DNA of 64,000 nucleotides from a virus, in IMG/VR virus record IMGVR_UViG_3300035034_003774, one strand, 5' to 3'. The position numbers and the translations under genes were made by a program. The notes beneath the pieces are model-generated. The model saw only the letters and a program-made list of their open reading frames with translations. It was not told the DNA's origin and searched no databases. Positions within the stretch are counted from its first letter, which is position 1. Each line of letters starts with the position of its first letter. Below, piece after piece: positions 13,701 through 63,734 of this stretch.

Positions 13701-13707
13701 AATATTA

Positions 13708-13992: not shown

Positions 13993-13995
13993 ATT

Positions 13996-14020: not shown

Positions 14021-14026
14021 GATTAA

Positions 14027-14581: not shown

Positions 14582-14608
14582 TTTGCTATAAATTTATGAT
14601 TTCTCAAT

Positions 14609-14637
14609 GTTATACGCAAAAATAAATAAAATGTTTC
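14609..14637 (-). promoter_or_regulatory. sigma70-like promoter GAAACA-N17-TATAAC
   Basis: minus strand GAAACATTTTATTTATTTTTGCGTATAAC, 27 nt before ATG at 14581. Confidence 0.5.
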
Positions 14638-17436: not shown

Positions 17437-17499
17437 TATTTGGTTTTATATTGAAACTTTTATAATTTTGTAACGTATTTATATACACAAGCATTAATT

Positions 17500-17794: not shown

Positions 17795-17835
17795 TTTAAA
17801 GTTATTAACATGTTAATAACTTTTTAAAATTTGAT

Positions 17836-48258: not shown

Positions 48259-49971
48259 CTATTTTTTATTTAAAAGTGCAACTGTATTTCCTTCCCAGAC
48301 AATTATTCCAGAATTGGACTTATTTAAAACGCTCTGAGAAGTGATAATATCACAAGTCATCTCCCCAACCTTTTCAAAGTCCTGAGTTCTGTATAACTCA
48401 ATTCTATCATCCATTGGCATAAACAATATCCCATCCTTATCCTTTCTTCCAGAGCTATCAACATTAGGAATAAAAGCAAAGTGACTAATAATATCGAAGT
48501 CTCTCTGAGATACTTTTAACTTGAGGTTATCAATCTTAAACATCTTATATCTTAACTTCTTCTTTTCCTCATATTGAAGCATGCCTACATTTCCAACTTG
48601 CTGTATGCTATGTATATTTCCTATTGAGGATGATACAAGTGAAATATTCCTACCTGAATTATACATTATATTCTGCTTACCTCCAGAATTATGTATAAGA
48701 CCATTATGTGTATTAAACGCCTTTCCAAACACTCCGACCCTCTCTGTATGAACATTATCTGCACCAACCTGATCAATGTATACTTTATACATTACATCAT
48801 CACCGATAACAATTAATATGTTCTCCATTTGTATAGTCTGGCAATTGTGTGGAAACGTGAAGTTTGTTAGTTTCTGCGTCTTATTTTTGTTATAATGATA
48901 AAGTGAATCACCCTTCTTTAGTAATACATTTTCCTCACCAATATATGCCTCATCCCACCCACTCTTAGTAATTGAGTGTTTAAGATTTACGTATCCTTTG
49001 TTTTTAGAATTATAAATATGAAATTCTTTACCTGTCTCAACAATACCTTGATCATTTAAGAAAAAGACATTAACTATGTCAGAGTCTTGCGTGATCATAG
49101 AAATTATTAGATCATTTTGCTCATACTTCTTAACCATCTTAGGTTTATTAAGAGGGCTCGTAGCAATCACTGAATCATCAACCCCAGTGAGCGAAAGAAG
49201 AAATCTTTCTCCATTCAAATACATCTTTTTAAATTGGCTCATGAAGTTCTTGTCCTGTATTGGCTCATAACACTTAGGAATCTTTATATCTGAGCTATTA
49301 ACAAATACTGGTAGCTTATTAATCATTCTATCTCCAAGCTTCTTATAATCCTTATGCATTCCCTTGAAAGGGTGCAAGAAAGCAAGCATATTAAAAGATA
49401 ATATAGATAAGGCAAAAAAGTCACTATCCTCACTTACACGACCTTGATATAAATAATCTCTTACCTCTTCGAGCAATATATGAGAATGAGGAAATCCAGT
49501 AGTCTGATAAGAGTCTGTATCAATTAGCTTTATCACCCCTTGGTTGTTAACCAATATGTTAAATGGGTTAAAGTCTCCAATTACCACATTTTCTTTGTGA
49601 GCATATTTTACAGCAGCAATCAACTTCTCAATTACCTTCATTTTTACCTTCTTAGTAATTCCATTGTTCTTGCAGAACTTTTTATTATAAAAATTAGAAA
49701 GAGAGAAAAATGTTTGATCAATATACTTCATCGTATACCCAATAACAACTCCCTTATTGTCATAGATTAAATCAATTGGAGCAACGAAGTAATTAGGGTC
49801 CAATCTCTTTAGGAATTGAAACTTCTTCTGACTTATTGGTGTAATACCATCGTGGTAAATCTTGGCAACTGTATTTGAATCAATTTCATATACAACCCCT
49901 TCACCGCCCTGGTTAATTTCTTTTGAGGGGTCAATGTTTATTTTCCCCTTATTTGCTACTGCTGTTATCAT
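48259..49971 (-). CDS. protein kinase-like (Ser/Thr kinase fold) protein
   Basis: glycine-loop-like QGGEGVVYE, VAKIY lysine, catalytic-loop-like IGDFNPFNIL, DFG-equivalent IDTDS. Confidence 0.5.
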   Translation of the reverse strand: MITAVANKGKINIDPSKEINQGGEGVVYEIDSNTVAKIYHDGITPISQKKFQFLKRLDPNYFVAPIDLIYDNKGVVIGYTMKYIDQTFFSLSNFYNKKFCKNNGITKKVKMKVIEKLIAAVKYAHKENVVIGDFNPFNILVNNQGVIKLIDTDSYQTTGFPHSHILLEEVRDYLYQGRVSEDSDFFALSILSFNMLAFLHPFKGMHKDYKKLGDRMINKLPVFVNSSDIKIPKCYEPIQDKNFMSQFKKMYLNGERFLLSLTGVDDSVIATSPLNKPKMVKKYEQNDLIISMITQDSDIVNVFFLNDQGIVETGKEFHIYNSKNKGYVNLKHSITKSGWDEAYIGEENVLLKKGDSLYHYNKNKTQKLTNFTFPHNCQTIQMENILIVIGDDVMYKVYIDQVGADNVHTERVGVFGKAFNTHNGLIHNSGGKQNIMYNSGRNISLVSSSIGNIHSIQQVGNVGMLQYEEKKKLRYKMFKIDNLKLKVSQRDFDIISHFAFIPNVDSSGRKDKDGILFMPMDDRIELYRTQDFEKVGEMTCDIITSQSVLNKSNSGIIVWEGNTVALLNKK

Positions 49972-50803
49972 CTTCTTGTTCTTTTATGACGAGTCTGATC
50001 ATGCTTAGATCATCTTTATGCACTGATTTGTGAACCTTTCTTATAATGTTTAATTTCTTAGAAAGCATTATCTTATTGTTCAAGAACTTATCATCCTCAA
50101 ATAGATATTCAATTACATCTAAATCCCCCTCAATATTTGTAAAGGTAAGAACTCCGTCAGTAGATATTACAATATTCTTCGGGTCAGTAAACTTGCGCTT
50201 GCCAACGTATTTTGCATACCACATGTCAAAATAAGACTTGTCCAAATATATATCATCCAGTTCATATGCAATGTAGTCTGGCATATCTTGATACTTATCT
50301 GGGCTTATTGATTGAAACTTGTCATTCTCTATAACTTCAAGCTCCTTATCACAATAAATAAGGCCATCTCCAACATTTGTCACAATTGCTTCTCCATGAA
50401 CCTTGTCATACATTAATAACATAAAAGTAGATAGCATATCTCCAGTACTTAATCGTAAAATACCTTTTACATCTATCAACTTTTCGACAAACTTCTTCAT
50501 CAAGTCCTTCGCCTTCTCTTCAATCGTATTTCCGTAGATAGCACCCTCCTCTGTGATCTGCCTAAAAACCTTGCCCTGCAAAGAAGATGCAAAGTGAGAC
50601 TCTCTACCACCACTACATCCATCAAACACAACTCCAAGAAAGAATCTTCCGTGATCTACGGTAGTGGTAAAGTCTTCACAAAATACTGGATGGTCTTCAC
50701 CCTTTCTGATGACTGACCGAACTACTAACTCTCTTTTTGTTTGTTTCTCCATCTCCGTAGACGACCCACTGGAGTGATTCGACTTTTGTTTTGATAAGCT
50801 CAT
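49949..50803 (-). CDS. PP2C-family Ser/Thr phosphatase-like protein
   Basis: GVVFDGCSGG (cf. GVFDGHGG), TNVGDG (cf. NVGDSR), VISTDGV (cf. TDG). Confidence 0.5.
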   Translation of the reverse strand: MSLSKQKSNHSSGSSTEMEKQTKRELVVRSVIRKGEDHPVFCEDFTTTVDHGRFFLGVVFDGCSGGRESHFASSLQGKVFRQITEEGAIYGNTIEEKAKDLMKKFVEKLIDVKGILRLSTGDMLSTFMLLMYDKVHGEAIVTNVGDGLIYCDKELEVIENDKFQSISPDKYQDMPDYIAYELDDIYLDKSYFDMWYAKYVGKRKFTDPKNIVISTDGVLTFTNIEGDLDVIEYLFEDDKFLNNKIMLSKKLNIIRKVHKSVHKDDLSMIRLVIKEQEDDNSSSK

Positions 50804-50951
50804 ATTCTGATTGTATTTTTAGGAAGTCAAAAGGATATATTTCTCCTCCGTTCTGCTTTTCTTCTATTGCAGAAAAATAAGCATCCTCAGCCAACTCAAG
50901 CTCTGGCTTAAGTTCAGCTATTTTCTTAATTATTTCAGTTCTACTTTTCAT
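50697..50951 (-). CDS. hypothetical small protein (overlaps PP2C start region)
   Basis: 84-aa ORF. Confidence 0.25.
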   Translation of the reverse strand: MKSRTEIIKKIAELKPELELAEDAYFSAIEEKQNGGEIYPFDFLKIQSEYELIKTKVESLQWVVYGDGETNKKRVSSSVSHQKG

Positions 50952-51205
50952 TTCTTTGGCCTAAGTCTCTTTTTATCTGGAAAGACTCTCTCTATAAAGT
51001 CATACCTATTCATTAAATCAAGAGCCTCTTCATCCGTCTTATACCACTTATAATCTTTTATAAACCCTCCATAAGATTTGACTATAGTGCCTAAATATTT
51101 TTTCTTACCCATAACAAACCTCATAAAAAGTGGATATAAAAATCTACTTAATATATAAAGTCCGCAGAGGAACAAAAAAAGCAATAAGACTAATTTAGTT
51201 ATCAT
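50948..51205 (-). CDS. small membrane protein
   Basis: N-terminal TM helix, basic C-terminus. Confidence 0.3.
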   Translation of the reverse strand: MITKLVLLLFLFLCGLYILSRFLYPLFMRFVMGKKKYLGTIVKSYGGFIKDYKWYKTDEEALDLMNRYDFIERVFPDKKRLRPKK

Positions 51206-51213
51206 AATATTAT

Positions 51214-51239
51214 AAAAAAGGGAGCCACGAAGGACTCCC
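51214..51239 (-). terminator. rho-independent terminator after vWA gene
   Basis: GGGAG-TCCTTCGTGG-CTCCC then TTTTTT on minus strand. Confidence 0.5.
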
Positions 51240-51269
51240 TTTCACCTTCTAATATATTAATATCAACTC

Positions 51270-51980
51270 TTAGAAATTAACAGTAGATATTGCATTACCT
51301 CCAGCACTTGCAGAAGAGACAGAGCTTGAAATGAAATTAATCATTTTCTTGATGTCGTCTGCAGAGTCAGAAATAGTAGCAACGTTTTTGATACCCATAT
51401 CATCAGCTGCTTGTCTAAAAGTATCTTCCATTCCTTGCTGACCTCCAATACCAAATAAAATTGATTCGAATGAAGCAAAGTTTCTTTCTTCAGAAAGAAG
51501 ATCAGTAATGATGTCCTTAACATCACTTGCGCTCCCTGGCTGATTGTTTTCACCATCTGTGATCACAAAAAGAAGAGTCTTACAGTTTACACCCGCATTT
51601 TCAAGACCCTCTCTATAATCAAGAGCATTTTTAAGAGCAACCTTAGTTCCTTCATACAAAGAAGTAAGCCCTCCTATTGAGTTAGTGAAATCAACTGGAG
51701 CCAATTGATTAATTGGTTGAAACCCTGTTTTCACATTAACTTTTGTTTCAAACTCTACGATTGAAACGAATAGCTTTTCAGCAACATGTGAGTTCTGCAT
51801 TCTTTGAGTAAACTCATTGATGCCTTTGTTTAGTTCATCAACGTATGAGCCAACAGACCCAGATACGTCAACAGCGAATACAGCGTTAATCGTATCTTCA
51901 ACTTCTACGTCATCTGGGTTAAAGTTCCCAAAATTGTAATCAAAATCAACGTTGTTTTCACTTTTTTCTGATGTTTCCAT
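51270..51980 (-). CDS. von Willebrand factor A (vWA, TerY-like) domain protein
   Basis: MIDAS motif AVDVSGSVGS (DxSxS) ... T ... ITDGENN. Confidence 0.6.
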   Translation of the reverse strand: METSEKSENNVDFDYNFGNFNPDDVEVEDTINAVFAVDVSGSVGSYVDELNKGINEFTQRMQNSHVAEKLFVSIVEFETKVNVKTGFQPINQLAPVDFTNSIGGLTSLYEGTKVALKNALDYREGLENAGVNCKTLLFVITDGENNQPGSASDVKDIITDLLSEERNFASFESILFGIGGQQGMEDTFRQAADDMGIKNVATISDSADDIKKMINFISSSVSSASAGGNAISTVNF

Positions 51981-52001: not shown

Positions 52002-52030
52002 AAAAAAACTGAGAGGACTAAGCCTCTCAG
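52002..52030 (-). terminator. rho-independent terminator after pncA-like gene
   Basis: CTGAGAGG-CTTAGT-CCTCTCAG then TTTTTTT on minus strand. Confidence 0.65.
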
Positions 52031-52038
52031 TAAGTTGT

Positions 52039-52887
52039 TTATACTGCAGTAGTAGCTCCAGATCGTGAATTAATATTCTCAGCAGTTGTTGTTGAGAACT
52101 TTACTCCAAGATTTTTAGCCTCATCATAAATGGGTTGAGCTAATTCTCCAAAAGTAGGAGTTGTGCCTGGTCCATTTGGTCCGCCTGGTACGTCTGACAT
52201 ACAGTCCTCAAGAATTATAAACTTTTTAGCAAGAGTAGGAGCTTTTCTTACTACCTGCTTAAGCGTATTGGCAACACAGTGCGACTTAGCTTGGCCTGCA
52301 AGGTAAACTGTATCATACTTCTCAAGAATCTGCTGAAGCTTGAGGTTGTACTGAGTCTCTGGTATGTTTTGAATTGGTACCTGAGCTTCAAATGCACCGA
52401 AATGCTCTGTATCTGGATGCACTCCCTTTGCTACAAAGTGAACTGACTTTCCACGACCTCTCTGCCAATTTGTAATGGCACCATCAATTTTTTCATCAAG
52501 AGAATGACCCCATGAACCAATTCTACAGTGCTCTGGCCATATTACGTGAACATACTCACCTTCATCTTCAAGACTTTGTATGTAATCCATAGCATGCTGA
52601 GGTTTAACAGCATTCCACTTACCATCTTTAATATCCTGAAGTGAAATTGAAGTGAATGGCGCTGGATGATTACCATCCTTATCTTTCCAGTAACCTGGAT
52701 GAGCGATGTCATTTACTTGGTGAGAGTCAAGAGTACATCCAATGTATTCTATCTCATCACTATTATTCAAAATCCATTGAGACAATCTTTCGTTGTCATC
52801 TTCGGCTCCAGGTACATATAGCGACCCCTGAGGGTGGCAAAAGTCACGCTGAGCGTCAATTATTAAAATTGCTACTTTCTTTTTCAT
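52039..52887 (-). CDS. pncA: nicotinamidase/pyrazinamidase (isochorismatase-family cysteine hydrolase) with insertions
   Basis: IIDAQRDFC, WPEHC, K, SHCV (catalytic Cys) in PncA order. Confidence 0.6.
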   Translation of the reverse strand: MKKKVAILIIDAQRDFCHPQGSLYVPGAEDDNERLSQWILNNSDEIEYIGCTLDSHQVNDIAHPGYWKDKDGNHPAPFTSISLQDIKDGKWNAVKPQHAMDYIQSLEDEGEYVHVIWPEHCRIGSWGHSLDEKIDGAITNWQRGRGKSVHFVAKGVHPDTEHFGAFEAQVPIQNIPETQYNLKLQQILEKYDTVYLAGQAKSHCVANTLKQVVRKAPTLAKKFIILEDCMSDVPGGPNGPGTTPTFGELAQPIYDEAKNLGVKFSTTTAENINSRSGATTAV

Positions 52888-54037: not shown

Positions 54038-56758
54038 TTACAACCTTGGGTCAAGTTCATACTCCTTCTTCTCCTCAAGAACCATCTCTGCACAAGCCTG
54101 AACATAACTCTTGTTTTCTTTTCCTATCTTGTTGTAAGGAATTTCAAGAAGTCGCTTACCAATTTCCCACTCTTTAACAGAAACCTCCAACTTCTTAAAC
54201 GTTTTCTTACGACTAATAAGTTTTGAAAGTTTTTGTGGCATAAGGTAATCTGGTCCATAAATAATTGTTAGATACCTTGGGTTCCTAACTTTTATAGATG
54301 GAGCAACACCCTCGGTATACACATCCATAGGTTTAAGCATAATACCTTCCATTTCCTCTACATTAGTAGTGTTATCATAGAATTCTTTAAGCTTTTGAAT
54401 TTCTTCCTCCGAATTGATGTCGATGACAACAAATTCATCATCATTAACAGCGCTATAAACTTCCTCATTAGTAGAGTTGAAGAATAGCTTCTCAGAGCCA
54501 TCATCAAACACTTGCTTTAAGATAGAGAATGGCTTAAAATGAACATCTCCATCCGAACCATAAAGCTCTATCTGTTTTGAATATATTTCAGAAGCCTTCT
54601 TAAGATCATCCAGATTGGAGAACTCTCTATCAAAATCTCTAATACATCTGTAAGTCATAGCTCTATTTGAGCCGAACTTCTTGTCTAAACTTTTTCTTGA
54701 GGCCTTGTGCTGTACATTCTCATAATCAGACTCAGCATAAGGGCCATTAAAAATTTTATTGAACTCTTCTTCAAAACCAGTCTTCCTAAGAAAATCAATC
54801 TCACTATGAATAGCCTTATCTACAGTTACAAAATTCTTTTCAATCATGCCTCTACCCATTGCAGACCAAGGGAGAAGCTCAGCATCAAGAATTAATAACT
54901 CTGTCCCACTTTTGAATGCTTCCTTAACAAATGGAAGTTCATAAAGAGGTTTATACGCATCTGTTAGATCAAGTTTCTCTGGCTTAATTCTAAACCCACC
55001 TCTTGATGTAGAGTAGTTTTTATCTGGGTCAGAAAATAAGTATATATTAGCTCTTGAGCCCATGTACTTAGGCTGGGCCACCACTTTAGAAATACCTTTA
55101 CTTTTAAAGTAGTTTACCGCCTGATCTAAAGACTCAAGCTCACTATCCTCAAGAATGACTTCTTTATTTTCATCCTTTGAGATCACTTTATTCGCTGGAC
55201 AAATTGTTCCAGAAACAAAATTAACACCCCCCTCTGAAGCATAATAAATTCTTCCACGATCTCTACCTTCAAGATCATCTAAACTAACCTTTGGGGGTGG
55301 AGTGTAGAAAAAGTCATTAAGCTCTTTGCTATTAATCTTTTCATTGTACTTAGAGGAAACCTCCTTAATGAATGGTCGACCCCATGTATTAACAACAACA
55401 GAAGTTAGCTTACCTCCAGATACACATCCAGTATCAATATTTATCTTATTAGACTTAATCCCAACCCTATCAGTTGAAACATGCCCAAATACATGAGTTG
55501 GATATGATCGAGAAGATTGATTCCTGAAATAACTAAAGAACTTATACTTACTGTATAGGTACTCCGCCTTATCATCAAACTCCTGACGCTTTGGATAAAC
55601 TACAGTCATCTGGTTTCTTTCAGAGTTCTTGCCAAGCTTACCTAAATATTTCTGATCACAAGGAGCATGAGTAACAATGAAGTCATCTGACTTTAGAAAT
55701 GGCTTCATGACATCAAATATGTCATAAAACTTTTGCTTAAGCTCATCATCATCTCTAAAAAGCTCAATACTATCAAAATAAGTGTCAATAACGTCTTGAG
55801 GCGGAAGGTCTTTTACTCTTATTCCAGAATTATTATCTGAACCTTCAGATTCAAGATAATGAAGGTATTTGTAAACAAAGTTTTCATGATTACCCTTCAC
55901 CATGTGGAACCAGTCCATGTTATCATGCACAAACTCAATAACTGCACGAACATCATAACCTTTATCAACAAGATCGCCCACAAGAACTATTTTCTTCCCG
56001 CTTTCTTGACCAGTTATTTTACCGTTCTCAATTTCAAAATCATTCTTTTCAAGAAGTTTGATAAACTCATCGTAACAACCATGAATATCACCAATGATTA
56101 CATATTCTCCTTCTGGGAGCTGGCAATCTTGGTATCTATCATAGTTTGTTATGTTTATATCAACCTTATCAAGATTATGAGATTTGATTTTGTAAATATC
56201 TCTGAAATGTTTTTTACTAAGTTCAGACATAACTGTCTTTCTCATGTAATCAACTTGACGATGAGTTGTTCGCTTGTTCTCCTCACTATCTTTATCAATA
56301 AATTTCTCATAAGCTGACCTACCCTTATAATCAAACATAACAACAGCGATGTTATAATTATTCTTATAGGCTATATCCTTGATCTCATCTCTAAAGCTTT
56401 TCTTAAGCCCAGTTGAGTCAACTACAACAAAATCAGAATTTATTGGATACGATGTAAGAGCATCAACCTTTGATTTAAGTACATCAAAAGCTGGAACACT
56501 TGCGTGCATCATTCTTTTATCACTTTTAGAAAGCGAATCATCTCCAAGAAATTCCTTTCTAATGTCATCAGAAGAAATTCTATGTATTGAAACATCGCCC
56601 TGAGCCTTTAGCGAAGGGATTAGCTTGTTTTCTGTAAAATATGTCTTACCACACCCACTTGGACCAACGAGTAATACGATGGTGTGCATCCTCAAGTCGA
56701 TATTAACGACTTTGGACTCTCTGGGAGTATTCTTTACTTTGAATGTCTCTTCTTGCAT
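54038..56758 (-). CDS. polynucleotide kinase-phosphatase (Pnkp-like)
   Basis: N-terminal P-loop kinase (LLVGPSGCGKTY), central calcineurin-like phosphoesterase (GDIHGCYDEF, GDLVDKG, GNHE), and a ~400-aa C-terminal domain with a possible KYMGSR motif I. Probable true start at internal Met24 (MHTIVLLVG). Confidence 0.6.
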   Translation of the reverse strand: MQEETFKVKNTPRESKVVNIDLRMHTIVLLVGPSGCGKTYFTENKLIPSLKAQGDVSIHRISSDDIRKEFLGDDSLSKSDKRMMHASVPAFDVLKSKVDALTSYPINSDFVVVDSTGLKKSFRDEIKDIAYKNNYNIAVVMFDYKGRSAYEKFIDKDSEENKRTTHRQVDYMRKTVMSELSKKHFRDIYKIKSHNLDKVDINITNYDRYQDCQLPEGEYVIIGDIHGCYDEFIKLLEKNDFEIENGKITGQESGKKIVLVGDLVDKGYDVRAVIEFVHDNMDWFHMVKGNHENFVYKYLHYLESEGSDNNSGIRVKDLPPQDVIDTYFDSIELFRDDDELKQKFYDIFDVMKPFLKSDDFIVTHAPCDQKYLGKLGKNSERNQMTVVYPKRQEFDDKAEYLYSKYKFFSYFRNQSSRSYPTHVFGHVSTDRVGIKSNKINIDTGCVSGGKLTSVVVNTWGRPFIKEVSSKYNEKINSKELNDFFYTPPPKVSLDDLEGRDRGRIYYASEGGVNFVSGTICPANKVISKDENKEVILEDSELESLDQAVNYFKSKGISKVVAQPKYMGSRANIYLFSDPDKNYSTSRGGFRIKPEKLDLTDAYKPLYELPFVKEAFKSGTELLILDAELLPWSAMGRGMIEKNFVTVDKAIHSEIDFLRKTGFEEEFNKIFNGPYAESDYENVQHKASRKSLDKKFGSNRAMTYRCIRDFDREFSNLDDLKKASEIYSKQIELYGSDGDVHFKPFSILKQVFDDGSEKLFFNSTNEEVYSAVNDDEFVVIDINSEEEIQKLKEFYDNTTNVEEMEGIMLKPMDVYTEGVAPSIKVRNPRYLTIIYGPDYLMPQKLSKLISRKKTFKKLEVSVKEWEIGKRLLEIPYNKIGKENKSYVQACAEMVLEEKKEYELDPRL

Positions 56759-56763
56759 ATCTA

Positions 56764-56792
56764 TTTATACGTTAATTTTCTAAAATTGTTAC
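56764..56792 (-). promoter_or_regulatory. sigma70-like promoter GTAACA-N17-TATAAA
   Basis: minus strand GTAACAATTTTAGAAAATTAACGTATAAA; -10 only 6 nt from the annotated ATG 56758, supporting a downstream true start. Confidence 0.45.
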
Positions 56793-58093
56793 TTAAACTT
56801 GACAATAATTCCCTGACTCGGTGAAACACCTTCAACAACATCTCCAATTCCGAACCATTCAATAAGCTCAAGTTTGTCCTTAATTGGATATAAAACACCA
56901 TTCATGAAGTCCTTAAACTGCTTATCATCCCATTCAAAATCATGATCTTCATGACGCATCCCTTCCATAAAGTAATTGTCATTAAACCTTACGTCTGGAG
57001 TTGTTACAATTAGAGTTCCTATATTAGGAACATCAAGCATTTCTTTAAGCAGTTCTGTAGCTTTATGTGGCTCCATATGCTCAATAACTTCAGTGCATAT
57101 AATATCAATCTTTTGGTTGTTTCCATCTCCAGACTCAAGAAACTGATCTACTGTTTTATAGAACTCTACATTCTTAAGACCTTTTCTCTTGACTCTTTTC
57201 TCAGCCTTCTCTCTAACATCGTCATCAATATCAACAGCAAAATAATTAAGGTCCTTCATAAATCTGTTAAACCTACTTATATACTTACCTTCACCGCAAC
57301 CAACATCAAGAATGCTATTTCTAAAATCAAGTCTCTCTTGAATTGCCATCTGACGAGCTTGCCATGTATCTCCATACTTTATCTCAATGTCTTTCTGAGT
57401 ATTTTTTGACAAATCCTCTTGAACGCTTTTAAATGTCTTGAAGTTGATCAAGAATCTTTTCTTAAACAAGTATCTCACAAAATATGGAGCATCAATAATA
57501 TTCATGCATCTAACATACTTCATAGCATTTTCTTCATTGACATACATTGGCTCGTTATTAACGATTGCCTGGAATATTCCAAATAGACTGGCGAAATTTA
57601 AAAGCTCATATATAGACTTCTTTGTAGTAATTTTGATTTGATAATTCTTCCCACTAACCACCTCGTGTTCTACTTTATAGTCTGGGAAATAATCATTAAA
57701 TGCATCAATGTACCTTGAGTTCCATACATAAATCATATTAATAAAGAACACACTTTCGTTACCGCCTTCATCTTTTTTGGTGCCATCTACAATTGAATAC
57801 TCATTAGATTTAAAAGCACTCCTAAGCATATCATCAATAGCGCTTACTACAAAAGTAGCAGAGTTATATCTGGATGTGTTAAGGTATTCAAAAGTCTCCC
57901 CCTCATGAGATGGAAATGAAACTTCATCACTACCATCCTTGAAGAATAAATTATACTCCTGTTCACTACCTTTGGTGTAATAACCAAATATAGTACCCTG
58001 TCTCATAGTTTTGGCTTGAAGTCCTGTAGCAGGATTCTTACTAATAATAAATGAAAAGTCTTTATTATCACTCTTTAATTGTACAATACTCAT
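56789..58093 (-). CDS. Hen1-like RNA 3'-terminal 2'-O-methyltransferase (SAM-dependent MTase in C-terminal half)
   Basis: motif I ILDVGCGEGKY, post-I YFAVDIDDD, motif II DIICTEVIEHM; adjacency to Pnkp-like gene as in the bacterial Pnkp/Hen1 operon. Confidence 0.5.
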   Translation of the reverse strand: MSIVQLKSDNKDFSFIISKNPATGLQAKTMRQGTIFGYYTKGSEQEYNLFFKDGSDEVSFPSHEGETFEYLNTSRYNSATFVVSAIDDMLRSAFKSNEYSIVDGTKKDEGGNESVFFINMIYVWNSRYIDAFNDYFPDYKVEHEVVSGKNYQIKITTKKSIYELLNFASLFGIFQAIVNNEPMYVNEENAMKYVRCMNIIDAPYFVRYLFKKRFLINFKTFKSVQEDLSKNTQKDIEIKYGDTWQARQMAIQERLDFRNSILDVGCGEGKYISRFNRFMKDLNYFAVDIDDDVREKAEKRVKRKGLKNVEFYKTVDQFLESGDGNNQKIDIICTEVIEHMEPHKATELLKEMLDVPNIGTLIVTTPDVRFNDNYFMEGMRHEDHDFEWDDKQFKDFMNGVLYPIKDKLELIEWFGIGDVVEGVSPSQGIIVKFK

Positions 58094-58094
58094 T

Positions 58095-58343
58095 TTATGA
58101 CTTATTTATTTTTTTATTACCACCCTTATTAACCCCCAAAGTTTCATCATAATTTTTAAAAACGTCATTCGACTCTTTTTCTATGAATTCAACTAAATAT
58201 TTAAGAGCTTGTTCTGAATTCATTCCATTTTCCCCTACCTTACCTTTCTCTATAGCTCCTTTAACTGTTTTTGCAGCAACTGAAAAAGCTCCTACAGAAG
58301 CCATCGCTTGATCAAGTAAGTAATCCTTAGAATGTTCATCCAT
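58095..58343 (-). CDS. hypothetical small protein
   Basis: 82-aa ORF. Confidence 0.3.
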   Translation of the reverse strand: MDEHSKDYLLDQAMASVGAFSVAAKTVKGAIEKGKVGENGMNSEQALKYLVEFIEKESNDVFKNYDETLGVNKGGNKKINKS

Positions 58344-58351
58344 AACAATAT

Positions 58352-58380
58352 TTTATACGTTGATAAATTAAAAATGTTAC
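58352..58380 (-). promoter_or_regulatory. sigma70-like promoter GTAACA-N17-TATAAA
   Basis: minus strand GTAACATTTTTAATTTATCAACGTATAAA. Confidence 0.45.
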
Positions 58381-58381
58381 T

Positions 58382-59098
58382 TTATCTTCCAGTTTTATCT
58401 GGATTTGCTGGAGTAGTTTTCTTTATTAGCCTTTCAACGTTGTCTGATATGTTATTTTCATCATACTTGCTATTAAGGTGATCTAGTAACTTTTCGTGAT
58501 CTTTTCTTAGAGCTTCATCCTTGTTGTAATTCTTATCAGTCAGGAATGGATTGTACATCTTCTGAATTATCCTTGATACGTTATAAGCATCATCTCCACC
58601 TCTATGAGCAGTACCCTCAAATCCCATGTTCATAAAATTAAGTGCTTGAGAAACTCCAAGGTCAGTGTTTATACCATAAGTAAAACTAAATAAAGGTTTG
58701 ATATTGAAGTGGGTTCTATGAAACGGGTTTCTAATTTTTTTAAGATCACAATCTCTCTGAAACTGATGTTTATCGTACATCCCCCAACTAAACCAAATTC
58801 TATCTCTCGACTTATACTTCTTTTCAAGTATATCACAAGCCTCAGCAAATGAAACACCATGCTCATCAATATAGTCTTGAGTCAATGTTGTAAGCTCTGT
58901 ACAAAAATCGCTAATCTCAGAAAACTCTGGCTTAACAATTATTGTATCCTTAAGAACAATCTCCTTTGTGTTAAAATCAACTCCAGATATTCCTATCTCT
59001 ATTATCTCGTTGTACATACCCTTTGGCGGTCTACCTTTCCAGCAAGTTGCTTCAAGATCAATAACCAGAGCAATGTCTCTTTTCATTTTTCTTCCCAT
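58382..59098 (-). CDS. DEDDh 3'-5' exonuclease (ERI-1 / 3'hExo-like RNase)
   Basis: Exo I ALVIDLEATCW, Exo II WFSWGMYDKHQF, Exo III GTAHRGGDDAYN. Confidence 0.55.
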   Translation of the reverse strand: MGRKMKRDIALVIDLEATCWKGRPPKGMYNEIIEIGISGVDFNTKEIVLKDTIIVKPEFSEISDFCTELTTLTQDYIDEHGVSFAEACDILEKKYKSRDRIWFSWGMYDKHQFQRDCDLKKIRNPFHRTHFNIKPLFSFTYGINTDLGVSQALNFMNMGFEGTAHRGGDDAYNVSRIIQKMYNPFLTDKNYNKDEALRKDHEKLLDHLNSKYDENNISDNVERLIKKTTPANPDKTGR

Positions 59099-59373
59099 TT
59101 TATGTCTATTTCTTTTTTAAACTTATAATACCAATCACATGCTCTTTCATCATCAAAATCTTCAAAATCTATAGGCTTTAATTTTTTCCACAAATATCTT
59201 ACCTCAAGATTCCCGACCTTTTTGTCATAGGGTCCCCACCCATAGTCAATAGGGTCGTTAATAACATCTCCAAAATGAGCTCTATACCTTAATGAAGTGT
59301 TTGTTATGAAATAATGAAGCCATATCTTAAACCTATCCTCCCTACTCAATTTTATTTTAGACTTATAAATCAA
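59083..59373 (-). CDS. hypothetical protein
   Basis: 96-aa ORF. Confidence 0.25.
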   Translation of the reverse strand: MIYKSKIKLSREDRFKIWLHYFITNTSLRYRAHFGDVINDPIDYGWGPYDKKVGNLEVRYLWKKLKPIDFEDFDDERACDWYYKFKKEIDIKWEEK

Positions 59374-59376
59374 TTT

Positions 59377-59580
59377 TTATTCTTTTTCTTCGTCATTTTC
59401 ATCACCTTCTTTGTCCTCCAACATTACTTCAAGTATGGAGGCGTTATTAGCGATGGAATTACGCATTTTTTTGGCATATTCAGACCATTTATCTACATCA
59501 CCTCTATTCCAGTTTGTTCTTACAGATTCTCTTAAGTTTTCTATAGCCTTTTTAACAATTTTTTCTTCTAAACTATTCAT
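59377..59580 (-). CDS. hypothetical small acidic protein
   Basis: 67-aa ORF. Confidence 0.25.
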   Translation of the reverse strand: MNSLEEKIVKKAIENLRESVRTNWNRGDVDKWSEYAKKMRNSIANNASILEVMLEDKEGDENDEEKE

Positions 59581-60097
59581 TTATTACCTGTTTTCTCATG
59601 TTCTTAACCCATTTAGAATTTCCTATATCACCATCCTTAGCTTCAACTAACTCGCAGTGATTCTCTTTCTCGTTTATGATATATGCTGGAAAGCCTGTAG
59701 CAATTGATTCTGCCTTCATATCCATTCCATCTTTATGTGGAAGTTCATGCTTCCCACCTCTTATTAATTCTATGCTACCATTTCCCTTGGTCCACGAAAG
59801 AGGCATGAATAACAAATTTTTATCATCCAAAAAGCTATAGCGCATCATTACAATTCCGTAAGTCCATTTGTGTCCATATCTCATATCGTCATCAATATAT
59901 TCAAATATCATTTCAAGCCTTGGATACGGAAGCCCCTCTCTTATTCCTGAGTTTGGAATTGTAAAATGTCTCTGATACGCTGTATCAACAAGTGAATTAA
60001 AAATTTCAAGCCTTTCAACTTGACTCTCTAATTCCTCCACTCTTTCCTCTTTCTCATCTAATAGATCAGACAACCTTTCTTCTGCTGTTTTTTTCAT
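59573..60097 (-). CDS. hypothetical protein
   Basis: 174-aa ORF. Confidence 0.3.
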   Translation of the reverse strand: MKKTAEERLSDLLDEKEERVEELESQVERLEIFNSLVDTAYQRHFTIPNSGIREGLPYPRLEMIFEYIDDDMRYGHKWTYGIVMMRYSFLDDKNLLFMPLSWTKGNGSIELIRGGKHELPHKDGMDMKAESIATGFPAYIINEKENHCELVEAKDGDIGNSKWVKNMRKQVINE

Positions 60098-60639
60098 CTC
60101 TTTAGTTTTATGTATCCTGGTGGGACCTCATCAACAAGGTAAACGCCATTTTGTGAAATATATATTTTATGACCATCAGCCCTAAGTCTCATAGCCTCTA
60201 CTTCAAGTATTACAAACTTCCCTCTCCTGGCACCAACTTGTGATGCAACTTCAACACTCGGACTTAAATGAACATGATGTCTTTTCATTTTATTAAGACC
60301 ACTCTTCATTATAGCATCTACAGATTTCTCTGGAGCGCCATGGTAAAGAATTCGTGGAGGCTTAACTTCTTCAAATTCAATTTTAACATCAATTGAATGT
60401 CCTTGATTAGCTCTTATTTTTGTGAGGTCCTCACTGAAGGAGAACCTTTGCTTGTCACTATTATCGACAACACACTTTAGCTCATCAAGTGTAAATTCAA
60501 CCTTATGCTTTGCTTTTTCAATAAGTACTTTAACATCGGTCCAGCCATTGTCTTCAATGGTTATACCAATATCTTCTGGGCTATGTCTAAGCCAATATGA
60601 AATAGACTTACTTATCTTTTTTTCTTTTTTCTTTTCCAT
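60094..60639 (-). CDS. kptA: RNA 2'-phosphotransferase Tpt1/KptA
   Basis: ISKSISYWLRHSPEDIGI..DNGWTDV, RFSFSED..IRANQGHS, ILYHGAP, HHVHLS. Confidence 0.75.
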   Translation of the reverse strand: MEKKKEKKISKSISYWLRHSPEDIGITIEDNGWTDVKVLIEKAKHKVEFTLDELKCVVDNSDKQRFSFSEDLTKIRANQGHSIDVKIEFEEVKPPRILYHGAPEKSVDAIMKSGLNKMKRHHVHLSPSVEVASQVGARRGKFVILEVEAMRLRADGHKIYISQNGVYLVDEVPPGYIKLKR

Positions 60640-61174
60640 CTAATTTATCCATTATTTCCAAAATAATCTTTTCCTTAGCACCTGGACCTATACCTTTAAC
60701 ATTGGTATACTCTATGTTGTTGTCAGTAAGAAAATCTACAATAGCATTATCAACTTTCTTAGCACCCTCTGAATCCTGATACCTCCCTTCTTGTTCGTAT
60801 GGAACTGCGTCATCTCTTAAAATAAGATAATTCATATTATCATACTTACCATATTCCTTAAGTACCAAGTTCTTTAACTCTTTGCACTTGGTGGTGTCAT
60901 ATATACTTGAAAATATAAATGGAGAATCGGTGATGATCACGTCAACCTCATCCTTCATAGTAAAAAGCTGATACTGCTGCTTTCCAAAGATGTAGATTTG
61001 ACTCTGAACAGCTTTCTCAGATTTTTCCCTAAGTTTCTTCTTAATGTATTCTGGTGATATTTCTGCAGAAATATATCTTCTCTTAAGTTCAGAGAAAATC
61101 TCTGATGTTAGAATTGATTTTCCCACTCCTGGGCCTCCTATTAAATTTACAACTATTGCGTCTTTTTTGTACAT
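60608..61174 (-). CDS. P-loop NTPase, small kinase-like (start reassigned to Met at 61174)
   Basis: MYKKDAIVVNLIGGPGVGKS Walker A at N-terminus. ORF-track start 61273 would read through the upstream terminator hairpin. Confidence 0.45.
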   Translation of the reverse strand: MYKKDAIVVNLIGGPGVGKSILTSEIFSELKRRYISAEISPEYIKKKLREKSEKAVQSQIYIFGKQQYQLFTMKDEVDVIITDSPFIFSSIYDTTKCKELKNLVLKEYGKYDNMNYLILRDDAVPYEQEGRYQDSEGAKKVDNAIVDFLTDNNIEYTNVKGIGPGAKEKIILEIMDKLDGKEKRKKDK

Positions 61175-61182
61175 GTATATTA

Positions 61183-61213
61183 AAATAAAAAAGAGCCCCT
61201 TTTGGAGACTCTT
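61183..61213 (-). terminator. rho-independent terminator after UVR-domain gene
   Basis: AAGAGTCTCC-AAAA-GGGGCTCTT hairpin then TTTTATTTTA on minus strand. Confidence 0.45.
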
Positions 61214-61262
61214 GTGATTTCGCTCTCCTTGGAGCAAAAATAACGAAAATATTTTAATAGTA

Positions 61263-61673
61263 CTAATTAACATCGTTTAATTTATCCCTGATCTTTGCAG
61301 CCTTTTCGAAATCTTCACTATCAACAGCCTTTTCAAGCTCTTTATGTAACCAATCTGCACTATTTTTTATATTTTCTAAATTTAGACATCTTAGCTCTTC
61401 AATTTTAGTATCTGGGAAGAACCCGCTTATAGCATTTGCTGTTATGTTACCAGTAAGTTCAATTAACAAATACTTCTCCCCCTTCTTCATTTTAAGTTCA
61501 TCCCTAATTTCATCACTTGAAAGGTTTGTGGTGAATATTATTCCAAAACTCCCAATTCTCTCTGTAGTAACAGCTATATGCTTGTTTATATAAGCCGTCT
61601 TAACTGCGATGTAACTATCAGAAACACCCTCTTGATCAATTATGAATAAATATGTCTTCAACTCCTCTGGCAT
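61263..61673 (-). CDS. hypothetical protein with C-terminal UVR domain
   Basis: EKAVDSEDFEKAAKIRDKLNDV. Confidence 0.35.
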   Translation of the reverse strand: MPEELKTYLFIIDQEGVSDSYIAVKTAYINKHIAVTTERIGSFGIIFTTNLSSDEIRDELKMKKGEKYLLIELTGNITANAISGFFPDTKIEELRCLNLENIKNSADWLHKELEKAVDSEDFEKAAKIRDKLNDVN

Positions 61674-61675
61674 AA

Positions 61676-62197
61676 CTAAACTTTATCGTTTAAAGATAAT
61701 TTGTAATTACTAAACTCCTCCTGACCTGTAACTTCCACTATAATTTGATCTCTAATTACTTCTGGAATTTGTTTTATGTTGAAACTTTTGAAATCCTCTT
61801 CATTATCAAACTCAACCTCCATCACAACTAGCTTTATGTCGTGGTAGTCATCTATCTCCCAATTAAACCCTCCGCTACGATAAACATGGCGAGTCTTTAG
61901 TATTTCAGTATGAGGTTTCTGTAGCATTTTTCTAAAATCATCCTGACTTATGCGCTCTTCCATTTCCTCAAACACACCAGTTGATATTGGCTTTTTTATA
62001 CACTTAACATAACTCCTATCAACAATGGGAGATGAACCTTTCTTACTAAACTTTTCGTGCATTCTAAACCTTACAACCTGATCTTCAAGATCAATGTATA
62101 TCTGGTGAATTAAAAAGTTATCATGCTCACGATGCCCAAGTGTAGGAACCCTCTTAAGCAAGTACTTTCTTTCTATTTCTAAATTATCTTTATTCAT
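61676..62197 (-). CDS. CYTH-domain triphosphate tunnel metalloenzyme
   Basis: N-terminal LEIERKYLLKRVP (EIERKFLV signature). Confidence 0.5.
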   Translation of the reverse strand: MNKDNLEIERKYLLKRVPTLGHREHDNFLIHQIYIDLEDQVVRFRMHEKFSKKGSSPIVDRSYVKCIKKPISTGVFEEMEERISQDDFRKMLQKPHTEILKTRHVYRSGGFNWEIDDYHDIKLVVMEVEFDNEEDFKSFNIKQIPEVIRDQIIVEVTGQEEFSNYKLSLNDKV

Positions 62198-62198: not shown

Positions 62199-63734
62199 TT
62201 ACTTTTTTCTATAGTCCATATTTAATTTTGTCGATCTTACGTAAGCTCTAATCATTTTAATTTCAGGAACTGTCTTTTCATAACCATAAAGCTCCTTCAT
62301 CGTCTTTCTCATCGAAGAGTCGCTTGTATTAAAAACGATGTCTTCCATTTTTATTTGAGATGGATGATCGTAACCGCAAGCATGTGAAACTTCCATAATA
62401 TCCTTTCTAAGAGTTTTTATAAATCGACCAACTCTCTCAGACTTATCCTCTACATTCACACCCTTTTCAAGCCACCAGTTATGAGTTGCAATTCCAGCAG
62501 GACATCTACCAGTGTGACAAACCTTTGCTTGTATACACCCAGCAGACATCATAACTTCTCTTGCAATATTAATTAGATCAGCACCCATAGCAAATGCAAC
62601 TGCAGCTCTCGTTGGATGCCCAAGCTTTCCAGATGCAATCCAAGTCACATCACTTTCAATTTTCTTGTCTTTAAAAATCTTGTACACCTTAGAAAATCCA
62701 TCCTTAAGCGGAAGCGACATGTTATCAGCAAAAGCTGAAGGCGCAGCTCCAGTTCCTCCTTCTCCACCATCTATTGTAATAAAATCTGGACCCTTTCCTG
62801 TTGATTTTATAATTTCCGACAACTCTTCCCAGAAGTCAGTTTTACCAACCGCCGACTTAATACCCACTGGAAGTCCAGTTAACTCAGCTATTTCTTCAAT
62901 AAGGTCAACAAGTTCTGATGTATTTTTAAATGCTGTGTGATAAGCTGGAGAATGAACCGTCTTACCCTCTTCAATGCCTCTTATTTTAGCGATCTCAGCA
63001 TTAACCTTCTTACCTGGTAGTATTCCGCCTTTTCCTGGCTTAGCACCTTGAGATAGCTTTATCTCAATCATTCTTATGTCTCTATTAGACTTTGTTAATG
63101 AGTGAAGTGCGTCGATGTCAAAAACACGCTTTCCATCCACTGTCTTACCACAGCCAAAATATCCTGTTCCAAAGTGAAATACAACATCAGCTCCATTTCC
63201 ATGATATTTTGTAGAGAAACCTCCTTCTCCAGTATTGTGATAAGCTCCAGCTATGTATGCCCCTCTGTTATTTGACTCTGTTGCCTTTTTCCCAAGTGAA
63301 CCATAACTCATTGCAGATATATTAACAATAGATAGAGGTAAGTAAGGTTTATCTCTTAATCTTCCTATAACCTTAGCGCAAGGAGCAAAATCTTCTGGCA
63401 TCGCTTCGTTTCTTTTAAATGGAAATGAACTTGTGTTTACAAAGAAGTGGCCATTTTCATAAAAGTTGGCGTCCGAGCCAAATCCAGTTAGATTATTCTC
63501 TCCTTTGGCGGAAGAGTATATGTAGCTTCTCCAAACACGATCAAAAGGTTTCTCCTCTCTATCGTGAGCAACCCAATACTGCCTTAGCTCTGGTCCAATC
63601 TTTTCCAAAAAATACCTTAACCTACCCACTAATGGGAAGTTACTTATAATTGTATGCTTCTTATTAAAGATGTCGTAAACTGCTACTAAAGCAATTACTG
63701 CAATTATCGAAAATACTACTGTCATTGTGCTCAT
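62199..63734 (-). CDS. FMN-binding glutamate synthase (GltS central domain) family protein, membrane anchored
   Basis: N-terminal TM; IEIKLSQGAKPGKGGILPGKKV; GADLINIAREVMMSAGCIQAKVCHTGRCPAGIATHN. Confidence 0.6.
   Translation of the reverse strand: MSTMTVVFSIIAVIALVAVYDIFNKKHTIISNFPLVGRLRYFLEKIGPELRQYWVAHDREEKPFDRVWRSYIYSSAKGENNLTGFGSDANFYENGHFFVNTSSFPFKRNEAMPEDFAPCAKVIGRLRDKPYLPLSIVNISAMSYGSLGKKATESNNRGAYIAGAYHNTGEGGFSTKYHGNGADVVFHFGTGYFGCGKTVDGKRVFDIDALHSLTKSNRDIRMIEIKLSQGAKPGKGGILPGKKVNAEIAKIRGIEEGKTVHSPAYHTAFKNTSELVDLIEEIAELTGLPVGIKSAVGKTDFWEELSEIIKSTGKGPDFITIDGGEGGTGAAPSAFADNMSLPLKDGFSKVYKIFKDKKIESDVTWIASGKLGHPTRAAVAFAMGADLINIAREVMMSAGCIQAKVCHTGRCPAGIATHNWWLEKGVNVEDKSERVGRFIKTLRKDIMEVSHACGYDHPSQIKMEDIVFNTSDSSMRKTMKELYGYEKTVPEIKMIRAYVRSTKLNMDYRKK

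Follow-up and report, generated by a model that had tools for sequence, protein, structure and literature searches.

A probable Hen1–Pnkp RNA repair cassette beside Tpt1 in a very large uncultivated phage

In bacteria, RNA repair by Hen1 and Pnkp is encoded by a gene pair that the Shuman laboratory calls the "Hen1-Pnkp cassette" (PMC3675462, PMC6097658), and the N-terminal domain of Hen1 binds and activates the ligase (PMC3675462, PMC4411300). Hen1/PNKP has already been noted in the Xanthomonas jumbo phage XacN1, where it was interpreted as transfer RNA (tRNA) repair (PMC5852040). Published jumbo-phage RNA repair kits list KptA, RlaP, Thg1 and calcineurin-like phosphatases (PMC7824862); the word Hen1 is absent from the main text of that survey, which also reports that jumbo phages carry genes for nicotinamide adenine dinucleotide (NAD+) synthesis and ADP-ribose processing against NADase defences. 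The RNA 2'-phosphotransferase Tpt1/KptA is defined by an Arg-His-Arg-Arg catalytic tetrad, consumes NAD+ and releases nicotinamide (PMC6097658). Here we describe the interval 54038-62197 of a 64,000-nucleotide stretch of IMG/VR virus record IMGVR_UViG_3300035034_003774, hereafter the window. The window probably encodes a complete phage-borne Hen1–Pnkp cassette that would heal, methylate and seal broken RNA; its accessory repair enzymes would be Tpt1, an exonuclease, RlaP, Thg1 and an ADP-ribosylglycohydrolase.

The Hen1–Pnkp pair and its neighbours in bacteria and viruses

The two core genes are separated by 30 nucleotides (nt), on the same strand, with Hen1 upstream:

56789-58093, minus strand: Hen1, 434 amino acids (aa), N-terminal ligase-activating domain and 3'-terminal ribose 2'-O-methyltransferase (PF22032, 4XRP_C and motifs)
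54038-56758, minus strand: Pnkp, 906 aa, fused kinase, binuclear metallophosphoesterase and ATP-dependent ligase (Pfam, TIGR04075, Protein Data Bank (PDB) and motifs)

Residues 3-232 of Hen1 match the Hen1_N domain (PF22032, E=4.2e-67), and the protein aligns over its full length with Hen1 of Capnocytophaga gingivalis (4XRP_C, E=1.8e-43). Its class I methyltransferase domain (Methyltransf_25/31, E values of about 1e-11 to 1e-12; 3JWI, E=1e-12) contains the S-adenosylmethionine motif D263-G269 and the metal ligands E335/E338/H339 and H381/H384. The motifs DVGCGEG, EVIEH and RHEDH are invariant among 17 homologues.

Pnkp aligns to TIGR04075 over residues 20-454. Its kinase domain (AAA_33, E=3.4e-8, residues 28-175) carries the Walker A motif GPSGCGKT at 32-39. 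The phosphatase part matches that of Clostridium thermocellum Pnkp (4J6O, E=9e-16) and has all five expected motifs (DxH, GDxxDxG, GNHx, H and GH, at 223-227, 261-267, 289-292, 364 and 425-427), with metallophosphoesterase residues D224/H226, D262, N290/H291, H364 and H426 and with K266 in GDLVDKG. The ligase domain (PNKP_ligase PF16542, E=5.6e-30) is closest to the C. gingivalis ligase Rnl (4XRU_B, E=7e-52 over residues 519-906), the match to the C. thermocellum ligase domain being far weaker (E=1e-16). The ligase lysine K564 lies in KYMGS and aligns with the identical KYMGS of Rnl, and the motifs EGIMLKP (E804-K809) and IKVRN (K823) are conserved. The Hen1–Pnkp pair proposed in a preliminary description of this DNA is therefore genuine, the decisive lysine and the Hen1 N-terminal domain both being present. 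Profile searches likewise bore out every family which that description had named in the interval, with all seven genes (Hen1, Pnkp, an ERI-1-like exonuclease, Tpt1, a P-loop kinase, a UVR-motif protein and a CYTH enzyme) on the minus strand and their catalytic motifs intact.

Pattern scanning gave at least 550 matches to the PF22032-type Hen1–Pnkp clade among GTDB species genomes, and the clade is common in Bacillales. To place the window pair among these, a set of 81 bacterial loci, comprising the best 80 of the scan plus Paenibacillus durus, was compared with 36 viral loci from IMG/VR. The window proteins and bacterial representatives were searched against all open reading frames (ORFs) of these loci, with Pfam annotation of the representatives. 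Pnkp directly follows a co-oriented Hen1 in 80/80 scanned bacterial loci, in P. durus and in about 30 of the 36 viral loci. This gene order, which had been taken for an inversion of the bacterial operon, is instead the norm of the clade. The following families were found within 8 kb of Hen1 in the bacterial set:

RlaP: 39/81 loci, usually directly upstream of Hen1 (33 loci)
RtcB: 23/81 loci, usually directly downstream of Pnkp
Ro60/TROVE: 13/81 loci, upstream
Tpt1: 10/81 loci, seven directly after Pnkp
ADP-ribosylglycohydrolase: 4/81 loci, always with Tpt1 and downstream of it

Divergent WYL regulators are present in 39 of the 81 loci. The P. durus locus, which reads Hen1–Pnkp–Tpt1–ADP_ribosyl_GH, is part of a defence island. 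A gene occurring once per genome is expected by chance in a given 17-kb stretch in about 0.3% of genomes; Tpt1 at 10/81 loci is far above this, though the genomes are mutually related. The association of Tpt1 with the pair, which had been thought undescribed, is thus recurrent in bacteria, and KptA/Tpt1, RlaP and Thg1 figure in published jumbo-phage kits. Mutual exclusion of Tpt1 and RtcB downstream of Pnkp was also considered and rejected (1/81 loci with both vs about 2.8 expected, not significant). The larger Bacillales cassettes (L040-L119, L005) run Ro60/TROVE, RlaP, Hen1 and Pnkp, then RtcB or Tpt1, with or without ADP-ribosylglycohydrolase.

Among viral loci, Tpt1 is confined to the lineage of the window. 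Thg1 accompanies Hen1 in nine other viral loci, within about 7 kb and directly adjacent in L004, and RlaP does so in two. Outside this phage lineage, searches of the fetched bacterial and viral loci detected no homologues of the window's exonuclease, DnaJ, AAA_28 P-loop kinase, UVR protein or nicotinamidase near Hen1–Pnkp; CYTH was found there once, in L007. PADLOC defence models searched against ten proteins of the region gave trivial P-loop and methyltransferase matches only. Three further repair genes, overlooked in the preliminary description, lie in the window outside the interval:

44453-45724, minus strand: RlaP, RNA-ligase-associated Pol-beta nucleotidyltransferase (PF10127, E=6.5e-23, N-terminal half of the model only)
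30701-31483, minus strand: ADP-ribosylglycohydrolase (E=4e-36)
24629-25465, minus strand: Thg1-like 3'-5' nucleotidyltransferase (E=7e-23)

Predicted operon and related phages

The genes and predicted terminators around the pair are, in order of transcription:

62199-63734, minus strand: Glu_synthase-like protein, 511 aa, with a flavin mononucleotide-binding Glu_synthase domain (E=1e-75)
61676-62197, minus strand: stand-alone CYTH/triphosphate-tunnel enzyme (Pfam E=2.8e-5, 24.5 bits vs a gathering threshold of 23.2)
61263-61673, minus strand: protein combining a ferredoxin-like N-domain with a UVR motif at the C-terminus (UVR E=1.3e-8)
61191-61213, minus strand: terminator-like hairpin and T-run between the UVR and kinase genes
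60608-61171, minus strand: AAA_28 P-loop kinase, 187 aa from the corrected start (ORF 60608-61273; AAA_28 E=1.4e-13)
60094-60639, minus strand: Tpt1/KptA, NAD+-dependent RNA 2'-phosphotransferase (PF01885, E=5e-47)
59083-60097, minus strand: three ORFs (96, 67 and 174 aa) without family matches, separating Tpt1 from the exonuclease
58382-59098, minus strand: ERI-1/KapD-like DEDDh 3'-5' exonuclease (RNase_T E=1.8e-8)
58095-58343, minus strand: small ORF, 82 aa, stopping two bases before the Hen1 start codon
52920-54017, minus strand: DnaJ (J domain, zinc finger, C-terminal domain), directly downstream of Pnkp
52039-52887, minus strand: nicotinamidase-like isochorismatase-fold protein (D11, K154, C204; D54/H56/H63)
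52008-52031, minus strand: strong terminator-like hairpin, 9 bp stem and T7, after the nicotinamidase gene

Throughout 54038-62197 the minus-strand ORFs overlap or lie at most 38 nt apart, with the sole exception of the 91-nt gap 61171/61263. The start of the AAA_28 gene is almost certainly the internal ATG at 61171, because homologues are 182-193 aa long and the terminator-like hairpin falls inside the N-terminal extension. Both hairpin positions are also occupied in the related contigs L001 and L006, by hairpins of different sequence, so that these boundaries span three phages sharing only 62-70% Hen1 identity. We therefore predict a transcription unit of about 9.1 kb, from the AAA_28 kinase as first gene through Tpt1, the three small ORFs, the exonuclease, the 82-aa ORF, Hen1, Pnkp and DnaJ to the nicotinamidase as last. 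The Glu_synthase-like gene would lead a separate preceding unit with CYTH and UVR. These three would lie outside the repair machine and, with the kinase, form part of the conserved backbone of the lineage. Of the single seven-gene unit proposed earlier, one predicted unit retains Hen1, Pnkp, Tpt1, the exonuclease and the kinase; CYTH and UVR fall beyond the conserved hairpin.

The family assignments of Tpt1, the exonuclease and CYTH in the preliminary description hold up in the profile searches. Tpt1 scores above its NCBIfam equivalog cut-off (NF002014, 240.4 vs 239 bits) and has the catalytic tetrad R18, H19, R65 and R120. The exonuclease has the DEDDh residues D14, E16, D109, H165 and D170; it matches the KapD model (E=1.7e-18, 66.9 bits vs a cut-off of 169), and its best solved relative is human ERI1 (1W0H, E=2.5e-16). 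Four ORFs without a Pfam match inside the interval (58095-58343, 59083-59373, 59377-59580 and 59573-60097) had been passed over. The 82-aa ORF upstream of Hen1 is weakly conserved, in the closest relatives only. The 96-, 67- and 174-aa ORFs were not detected in L001 or L006, which have no ORF or a short gap between Tpt1 and the exonuclease; by this comparison they are a lineage-specific insert. The 174-aa protein (59573-60097) has a charged, glutamate-rich N-terminus.

The AAA_28 protein had been regarded as a candidate RNA-repair kinase. A PDB search with its sequence returned no usable match, and it scores 25 bits against the NadR model TIGR01526 (cut-off 341). Its AlphaFold model has a predicted local distance difference test score (pLDDT) of 78.5, and the best Foldseek match is the NadR kinase domain (8X7F, E=2e-6, template-modelling score 0.65), with thymidylate and deoxynucleoside kinases close behind. 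The modelled fold appears to be that of a small-molecule kinase, most like NadR, and not of a polynucleotide kinase, and does not bear out the earlier assignment. JGI labels the metagenomic homologues of this protein, at least 479 in number, "nicotinamide riboside kinase". For the isochorismatase-fold protein, a family profile matched yeast Pnc1 (2H0R, E=6e-16), with the catalytic Asp/Lys/Cys and the metal-binding residues present. As Tpt1 uses NAD+ and releases nicotinamide, its place in one predicted transcription unit with a nicotinamidase and a NadR-like kinase hints at a link with NAD+ metabolism.

The CYTH enzyme has the motifs EIERK at 7-11 (E7xE9xK11), E78/E80 and E127/E129. A PDB search with the single sequence found no match; with a family profile, it aligned over its full length with 2FBL from Nitrosomonas europaea (E=6e-15), deposited as "hypothetical protein NE1496". 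We take NE1496 to be NeuTTM, an inorganic triphosphatase and not an RNA triphosphatase. The UVR protein was modelled (AlphaFold, pLDDT 71) as a ferredoxin-like N-domain followed by the UVR hairpin, and comparison of the model with PDB folds gave no significant match (best E=0.02) and no RNA-related one.

Contigs related to the window and carrying Hen1 are L001 (195 kb, Hen1 70% identical), L002 (8,975 bp, 69%, spanning the kinase to the Pnkp start only), L006 (67 kb, 62%) and L003 (43 kb, 49%). The block Glu_synthase-like–CYTH–UVR–AAA_28–Tpt1–exonuclease–Hen1–Pnkp–DnaJ–nicotinamidase-like–vWA–PP2C–protein kinase is syntenic as a whole in L001, L003 and L006. DnaJ follows Pnkp immediately, or after one or two short ORFs, in every related contig covering the site. 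Four further contigs, found through the AAA_28 protein (L125, L126, L131 and L132, 59-63% identical), keep the backbone, including Tpt1 and the exonuclease, and lack Hen1. In these, the Pnkp slot is filled by a kinase-phosphatase of 465-514 aa which aligns to window residues 1-484 and has no ligase domain. Hen1 and the Pnkp ligase domain are thus jointly present (window, L001, L002, L003, L006) or jointly absent in 9/9 contigs, a count in which only the start of Pnkp is visible for L002, whose contig ends inside the gene. So far as gene content goes, Hen1 and the ligase domain behave as one module in this phage lineage, in keeping with the published finding that the ligase depends on the N-domain of Hen1.

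The Pnkp gene itself is interrupted in some loci. In L001 (11354-15473) a 1.4-kb insert, with a LAGLIDADG homing endonuclease gene on the opposite strand, divides its kinase part from its phosphatase part at about residue 250. L008 has a similar split with a 256-nt gap, and in the bacterial loci L044 and L047 Pnkp occupies two abutting or overlapping ORFs. A GluRS/GlnRS-like tRNA synthetase gene precedes the Glu_synthase-like gene in several relatives. Single-sequence IMG/VR scans with Tpt1 and CYTH returned nothing, or only the known contig.

These relatives bear on whether the seven genes named earlier form one dedicated RNA-end repair machine, with the P-loop protein as RNA kinase and CYTH as RNA triphosphatase. 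The genes are contiguous, co-oriented and tightly packed, their block is syntenic in three relatives, and in L007, an unrelated viral locus, a stretch of 10 kb contains Hen1–Pnkp, RlaP and two CYTH genes. We nevertheless consider this reading improbable. CYTH, UVR and the kinase are kept unchanged in the four related phages without Hen1 or the ligase domain, a conserved hairpin parts CYTH and UVR from the rest, and the searches within 8 kb of Hen1 detected none of them at any of the 81 bacterial loci. Near the kinase, no other gene of the window block was detected in L128 and only an AAA-ATPase in L127, and in L130 the kinase stands beside a different repair module. Finally, its model matches NadR and thymidylate/nucleoside kinases rather than Pnk, CYTH matches the presumed NeuTTM structure 2FBL, and the UVR protein is without an RNA-related fold match.

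The module of L130, a 350-kb relative, lies downstream of AAA_28 (10976-14864) and comprises an RNA_ligase (PF09414), HNH, an AAA_33 kinase (Pnk), an MnmA-like tRNA methyltransferase-family protein and a 2H/Acb1 phosphoesterase. The region therefore seems to behave as an island that exchanges RNA repair modules.

Alternatively, two modules could share one operon: Hen1–Pnkp for RNA repair, and an independent NAD+/ADP-ribose module (Tpt1, the NadR-like kinase, the nicotinamidase and the distant ADP-ribosylglycohydrolase) that would salvage NAD+ or remove the ADP-ribose or 2'-phosphate marks of NAD+-consuming host defences. Consistent with this, Tpt1, the kinase and the nicotinamidase persist in the relatives without Hen1, the nicotinamidase profile matches Pnc1, the kinase is NadR-like with homologues named accordingly, and jumbo phages carry NAD+ and ADP-ribose genes against NADase defences (PMC7824862). 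In XacN1 (L120, 492-1904) an annotated nicotinate phosphoribosyltransferase lies about 4 kb from the Hen1 and ligase genes, a second case of NAD+ salvage genes near a phage Hen1. We regard this division into two modules as possible, if on balance unlikely. In bacteria, Tpt1, with or without ADP-ribosylglycohydrolase, directly follows Hen1–Pnkp and is co-oriented with it, which argues for functional coupling with repair. The Hen1-less relatives retain the Pnk-phosphatase and the exonuclease by Tpt1, so that RNA end-healing is the common theme. Moreover, no nicotinamide mononucleotide adenylyltransferase or phosphoribosyltransferase was seen in the window, so a complete salvage route is not visible.

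A more speculative proposal, which we hold to be distinctly doubtful, is that the unit from kinase to nicotinamidase is one NAD+-coupled RNA repair operon with two routes. In a yeast-like route shared by all members of the lineage, a Lys-variant phosphatase would open the 2',3'-cyclic phosphate and leave a 2'-phosphate, Tpt1 with NAD+ would clear it after ligation, and the nicotinamidase and NadR-like kinase would handle nicotinamide and replenish NAD+. Hen1 and the ligase domain would be an optional plug-in giving a 2'-O-methyl junction immune to re-cleavage. If true, this would supply the natural substrate that has long been sought for bacterial and phage Tpt1 and explain why Tpt1 follows Hen1–Pnkp in Bacillales.

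Proposed function and origin of the window

In the complete Hen1–Pnkp cassette that we favour, the steps are modelled on the characterised bacterial systems. The kinase domain of Pnkp would phosphorylate the 5'-OH and the metallophosphoesterase domain would take off the cyclic phosphate, after which Hen1 would methylate the 2'-OH of the 3'-terminal nucleotide. The ligase domain, adenylylated on K564 and activated by the Hen1 N-terminal domain, would then seal the nick, giving a 2'-O-methyl junction resistant to re-cutting. Among the accessory enzymes, Tpt1 could remove a 2'-phosphate using NAD+, the ERI-1-like exonuclease could trim 3' ends, RlaP and Thg1 could add nucleotides back, and the ADP-ribosylglycohydrolase could clear ADP-ribose by-products. 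The cassette would most plausibly be aimed at host nucleases that cut tRNAs or other RNAs during infection. We infer this counter-defence role, like the substrate and activity of the enzymes, from the precedent of T4, from the bacterial biochemistry (PMC4411300, PMC3675462) and from the reconstruction of jumbo-phage kits (PMC7824862); what we observe directly is the family membership of the proteins, their intact active sites, the arrangement of the genes and their comparative linkage.

Several points weigh against this reading. Hen1 and Pnkp score far below their NCBIfam equivalog cut-offs (80.5 bits vs 340 for TIGR04074 and 225 vs 750 for TIGR04075), which places them in a sister clade and not in the C. 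thermocellum/Anabaena clade; P. durus and several viral homologues likewise fall below these cut-offs. The fused form of this PF22032-type clade appears to be without biochemical characterisation. In the phosphatase, GDLVDKG (window 55960-55980, residues 261-267) replaces the GDLVDRG of C. thermocellum Pnkp, and the end product of this Arg-to-Lys variant could differ. The canonical Hen1–Pnkp pathway leaves no 2'-phosphate and so does not account for Tpt1. Linkage of the exonuclease, DnaJ, kinase and nicotinamidase to Hen1–Pnkp is confined to this phage lineage, where common descent alone could account for it. The terminator calls are pattern matches, whose weight comes solely from their conserved position. 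Finally, no phage structural gene is present in the 64-kb window.

The GDxxDKG lysine is present across nearly the whole PF22032-linked clade, bacterial and viral. That the change tracks the presence of Tpt1 was considered and rejected, the lysine being clade-wide. The change is still a lead on the Tpt1 question, though uncorrelated with Tpt1 presence.

Hen1–Pnkp might instead serve programmed processing rather than damage, by 2'-O-methylating or joining phage RNAs or by modifying host RNAs during takeover. Eukaryotic Hen1 enzymes mark the 3' ends of small RNAs, and the lineage is rich in translation genes (the GluRS-like gene in relatives; Thg1, YqeY and a locus resembling transfer-messenger RNA (tmRNA) in the window). 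This seems very unlikely to us, as breaks of the ribotoxin type are the target of every bacterial Hen1–Pnkp system characterised (PMC4411300, PMC3675462), the neighbours of the bacterial homologues are RtcB, RlaP, Ro60 and WYL regulators, in P. durus within a defence island, and neither tRNA genes nor Rfam introns were found in the window.

If the reading as a repair cassette is right, the Hen1–Pnkp repair-and-immunise system, in its fused three-domain form, would extend beyond bacteria and a few cultured jumbo phages to a lineage of very large environmental phages. The sister phages, some having and others lacking both Hen1 and the ligase domain, would constitute a natural experiment supporting the published rule that the ligase needs Hen1. 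The position of Tpt1 after Hen1–Pnkp, here and in bacterial loci, would also offer a concrete setting for the question of the Tpt1 substrate, treated as open in the Shuman-laboratory literature.

Gene content and database matches identify the source of the window as a very large uncultivated phage. There are PHROG family matches for several ORFs, and the IMG/VR relatives are viral contigs of 66-519 kb. A nuclease neighbouring the block is 43-47% identical to proteins of uncultured phages of 635-642 kb and also matches staphylococcal and listerial phages. The window has a guanine-plus-cytosine content of 33-39%, and its genes are small, dense and nearly all on a single strand; no near-identical DNA was found in cultured phages. 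Were it instead a fragment of a small-celled bacterial or archaeal genome, the pair would be an ordinary cellular operon. Two relatives do carry cellular NCBI labels, some being deposited as contigs of Nanoarchaeota or Paceibacterota metagenome-assembled genomes, and the window has sigma-70, ClpP, DnaJ and the tmRNA-like locus alongside its lack of structural genes. Set against the PHROG, IMG/VR and phage-nuclease matches, the compact one-strand gene layout and the homing endonucleases that interrupt genes in relatives, we judge a cellular origin extremely unlikely. The host is probably a member of the Bacteroidota, as suggested by a 372-aa protein (21268-22386, minus strand) with a C-terminal Por_Secre_tail (type IX secretion) sorting domain.

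Other genes of the window include:

51270-51980, minus strand: vWA protein
49949-50803, minus strand: PP2C phosphatase
48259-49971, minus strand: Ser/Thr protein kinase
42487-43056, minus strand: YqeY-like protein
39268-40110, minus strand: metallo-beta-lactamase-fold protein
37830-38558, minus strand: ClpP protease (E=2e-74)
29944-30618, minus strand: second protein with a C-terminal UVR motif, 224 aa
28052-29023, minus strand: DUF1152 protein
26999-27940, minus strand: Band_7/SPFH protein
17465-17831, plus strand: tmRNA-like locus
7329-8204, minus strand: R2K-clade ATP-grasp enzyme

The vWA–PP2C–kinase row (48259-51980) is kept in every related contig reaching that far and resembles the TerY–PP2C–kinase triad; TerC adjoins DnaJ in some relatives. 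Clp adaptors such as McsA contain UVR motifs, and, given ClpP in the window, its two UVR proteins (61263-61673 and 29944-30618) might be protease adaptors. The metallo-beta-lactamase-fold protein has a sub-threshold match to anti-Pycsar Apyc1 (33 bits vs 50); it could either degrade cyclic nucleotides as a counter-defence enzyme or be a nuclease like RNase Z. The P. durus Hen1–Pnkp locus, too, has a Band_7 gene at its edge. The tmRNA-like locus, called by ARAGORN with the tag peptide GNDLTKSLALEAVLNSERAETTAVAPVAMAA, sits in a short plus-strand island and adjoins the sigma-70 gene (17900-18781). In a local search it was sub-threshold (tmRNA_permuted 37.9 bits vs 47, E=6e-6; tmRNA 22.7 bits), and it may be a divergent phage-encoded tmRNA. 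At gathering thresholds, Rfam gave zero matches over the whole window, including no intron.

Comparison with known systems

The window pair resembles the classical bacterial cassette in having two co-oriented genes, a single-polypeptide Pnkp with P-loop kinase, lambda-phosphatase-type metallophosphoesterase and KxxG ligase, and a Hen1 with a ligase-binding N-domain and a Mn-type 2'-O-methyltransferase bearing the EVIEH and RHxDH motifs. It differs in being phage-borne, in its PF22032-type Hen1 N-domain, in GDLVDKG and in scoring below the TIGR04074 and TIGR04075 cut-offs, and its operon adds Tpt1, the exonuclease, DnaJ, the kinase and the nicotinamidase. Among solved structures, the ligase domain and Hen1 are closest to the Pnkp1–Rnl–Hen1 system of C. 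gingivalis (4XRP/4XRU; PMC4411300), which shares the identical KYMGS. There, however, Rnl is a separate protein, Pnkp1 is T4-like and hen1 lies far from both (PMC4411300), whereas in the window the three parts are fused and hen1 is adjacent.

The Bacillales cassettes (Paenibacillus, Cohnella, Listeria, Brevibacillus) have a Hen1 35-41% identical to that of the window, a fused Pnkp, Hen1 first and GDxxDKG. Tpt1, RlaP and ADP-ribosylglycohydrolase are accessory families that they have in common with the window; in Bacillales RlaP and the glycohydrolase are adjacent, whereas in the window they lie 8-23 kb from the cassette. Bacillales loci add RtcB, Ro60/TROVE and divergent WYL regulators, and homologues of the exonuclease, DnaJ, kinase and nicotinamidase were undetected in them.

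Other phages that encode Hen1 with an Rnl-type ligase and a kinase are XacN1, Stenotrophomonas CM1/RAS14 and Vibrio RYC/sm033, with Hen1 28-31% identical to that of the window. In XacN1, ORF197-199 encode the kinase, Hen1 and an Rnl-like ligase as three ORFs, unlike the fused Pnkp of the window, and Vibrio phage RYC carries Rnl together with a 717-aa Hen1 fusion; Tpt1 annotation was absent from both of these inspected loci. Among 50,697 GenBank phage records, five have any Hen1 and none has a fused three-domain Pnkp.

T4 Pnkp and Rnl1 follow the same logic against the anticodon nuclease PrrC, the phage healing and sealing tRNA cut by a host suicide nuclease. T4 relies on a HAD-type phosphatase and a separate Rnl1, leaves a clean junction without a methyl mark and has no Hen1 or Tpt1, whereas the window system has both. 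In the ligase–HD-Pnk–Tpt1 cluster of Runella slithyformis (PMC6097658), Tpt1 lies beside healing and sealing enzymes, as in the window; this cluster and the jumbo-phage kits use HD or HAD phosphatases and other ligases, unlike the window Pnkp. Phage Hen1/Pnkp and jumbo-phage repair kits being already published, the window is a further example and not a new kind of system. What the comparison adds is the covariation of Hen1 and the ligase domain across sister phages, the recurrence of Tpt1 behind Hen1–Pnkp in bacteria too, and a predicted operon, bounded by hairpins in three phages, in which Tpt1, an ERI-1-like exonuclease and NAD+-related enzymes accompany the pair.

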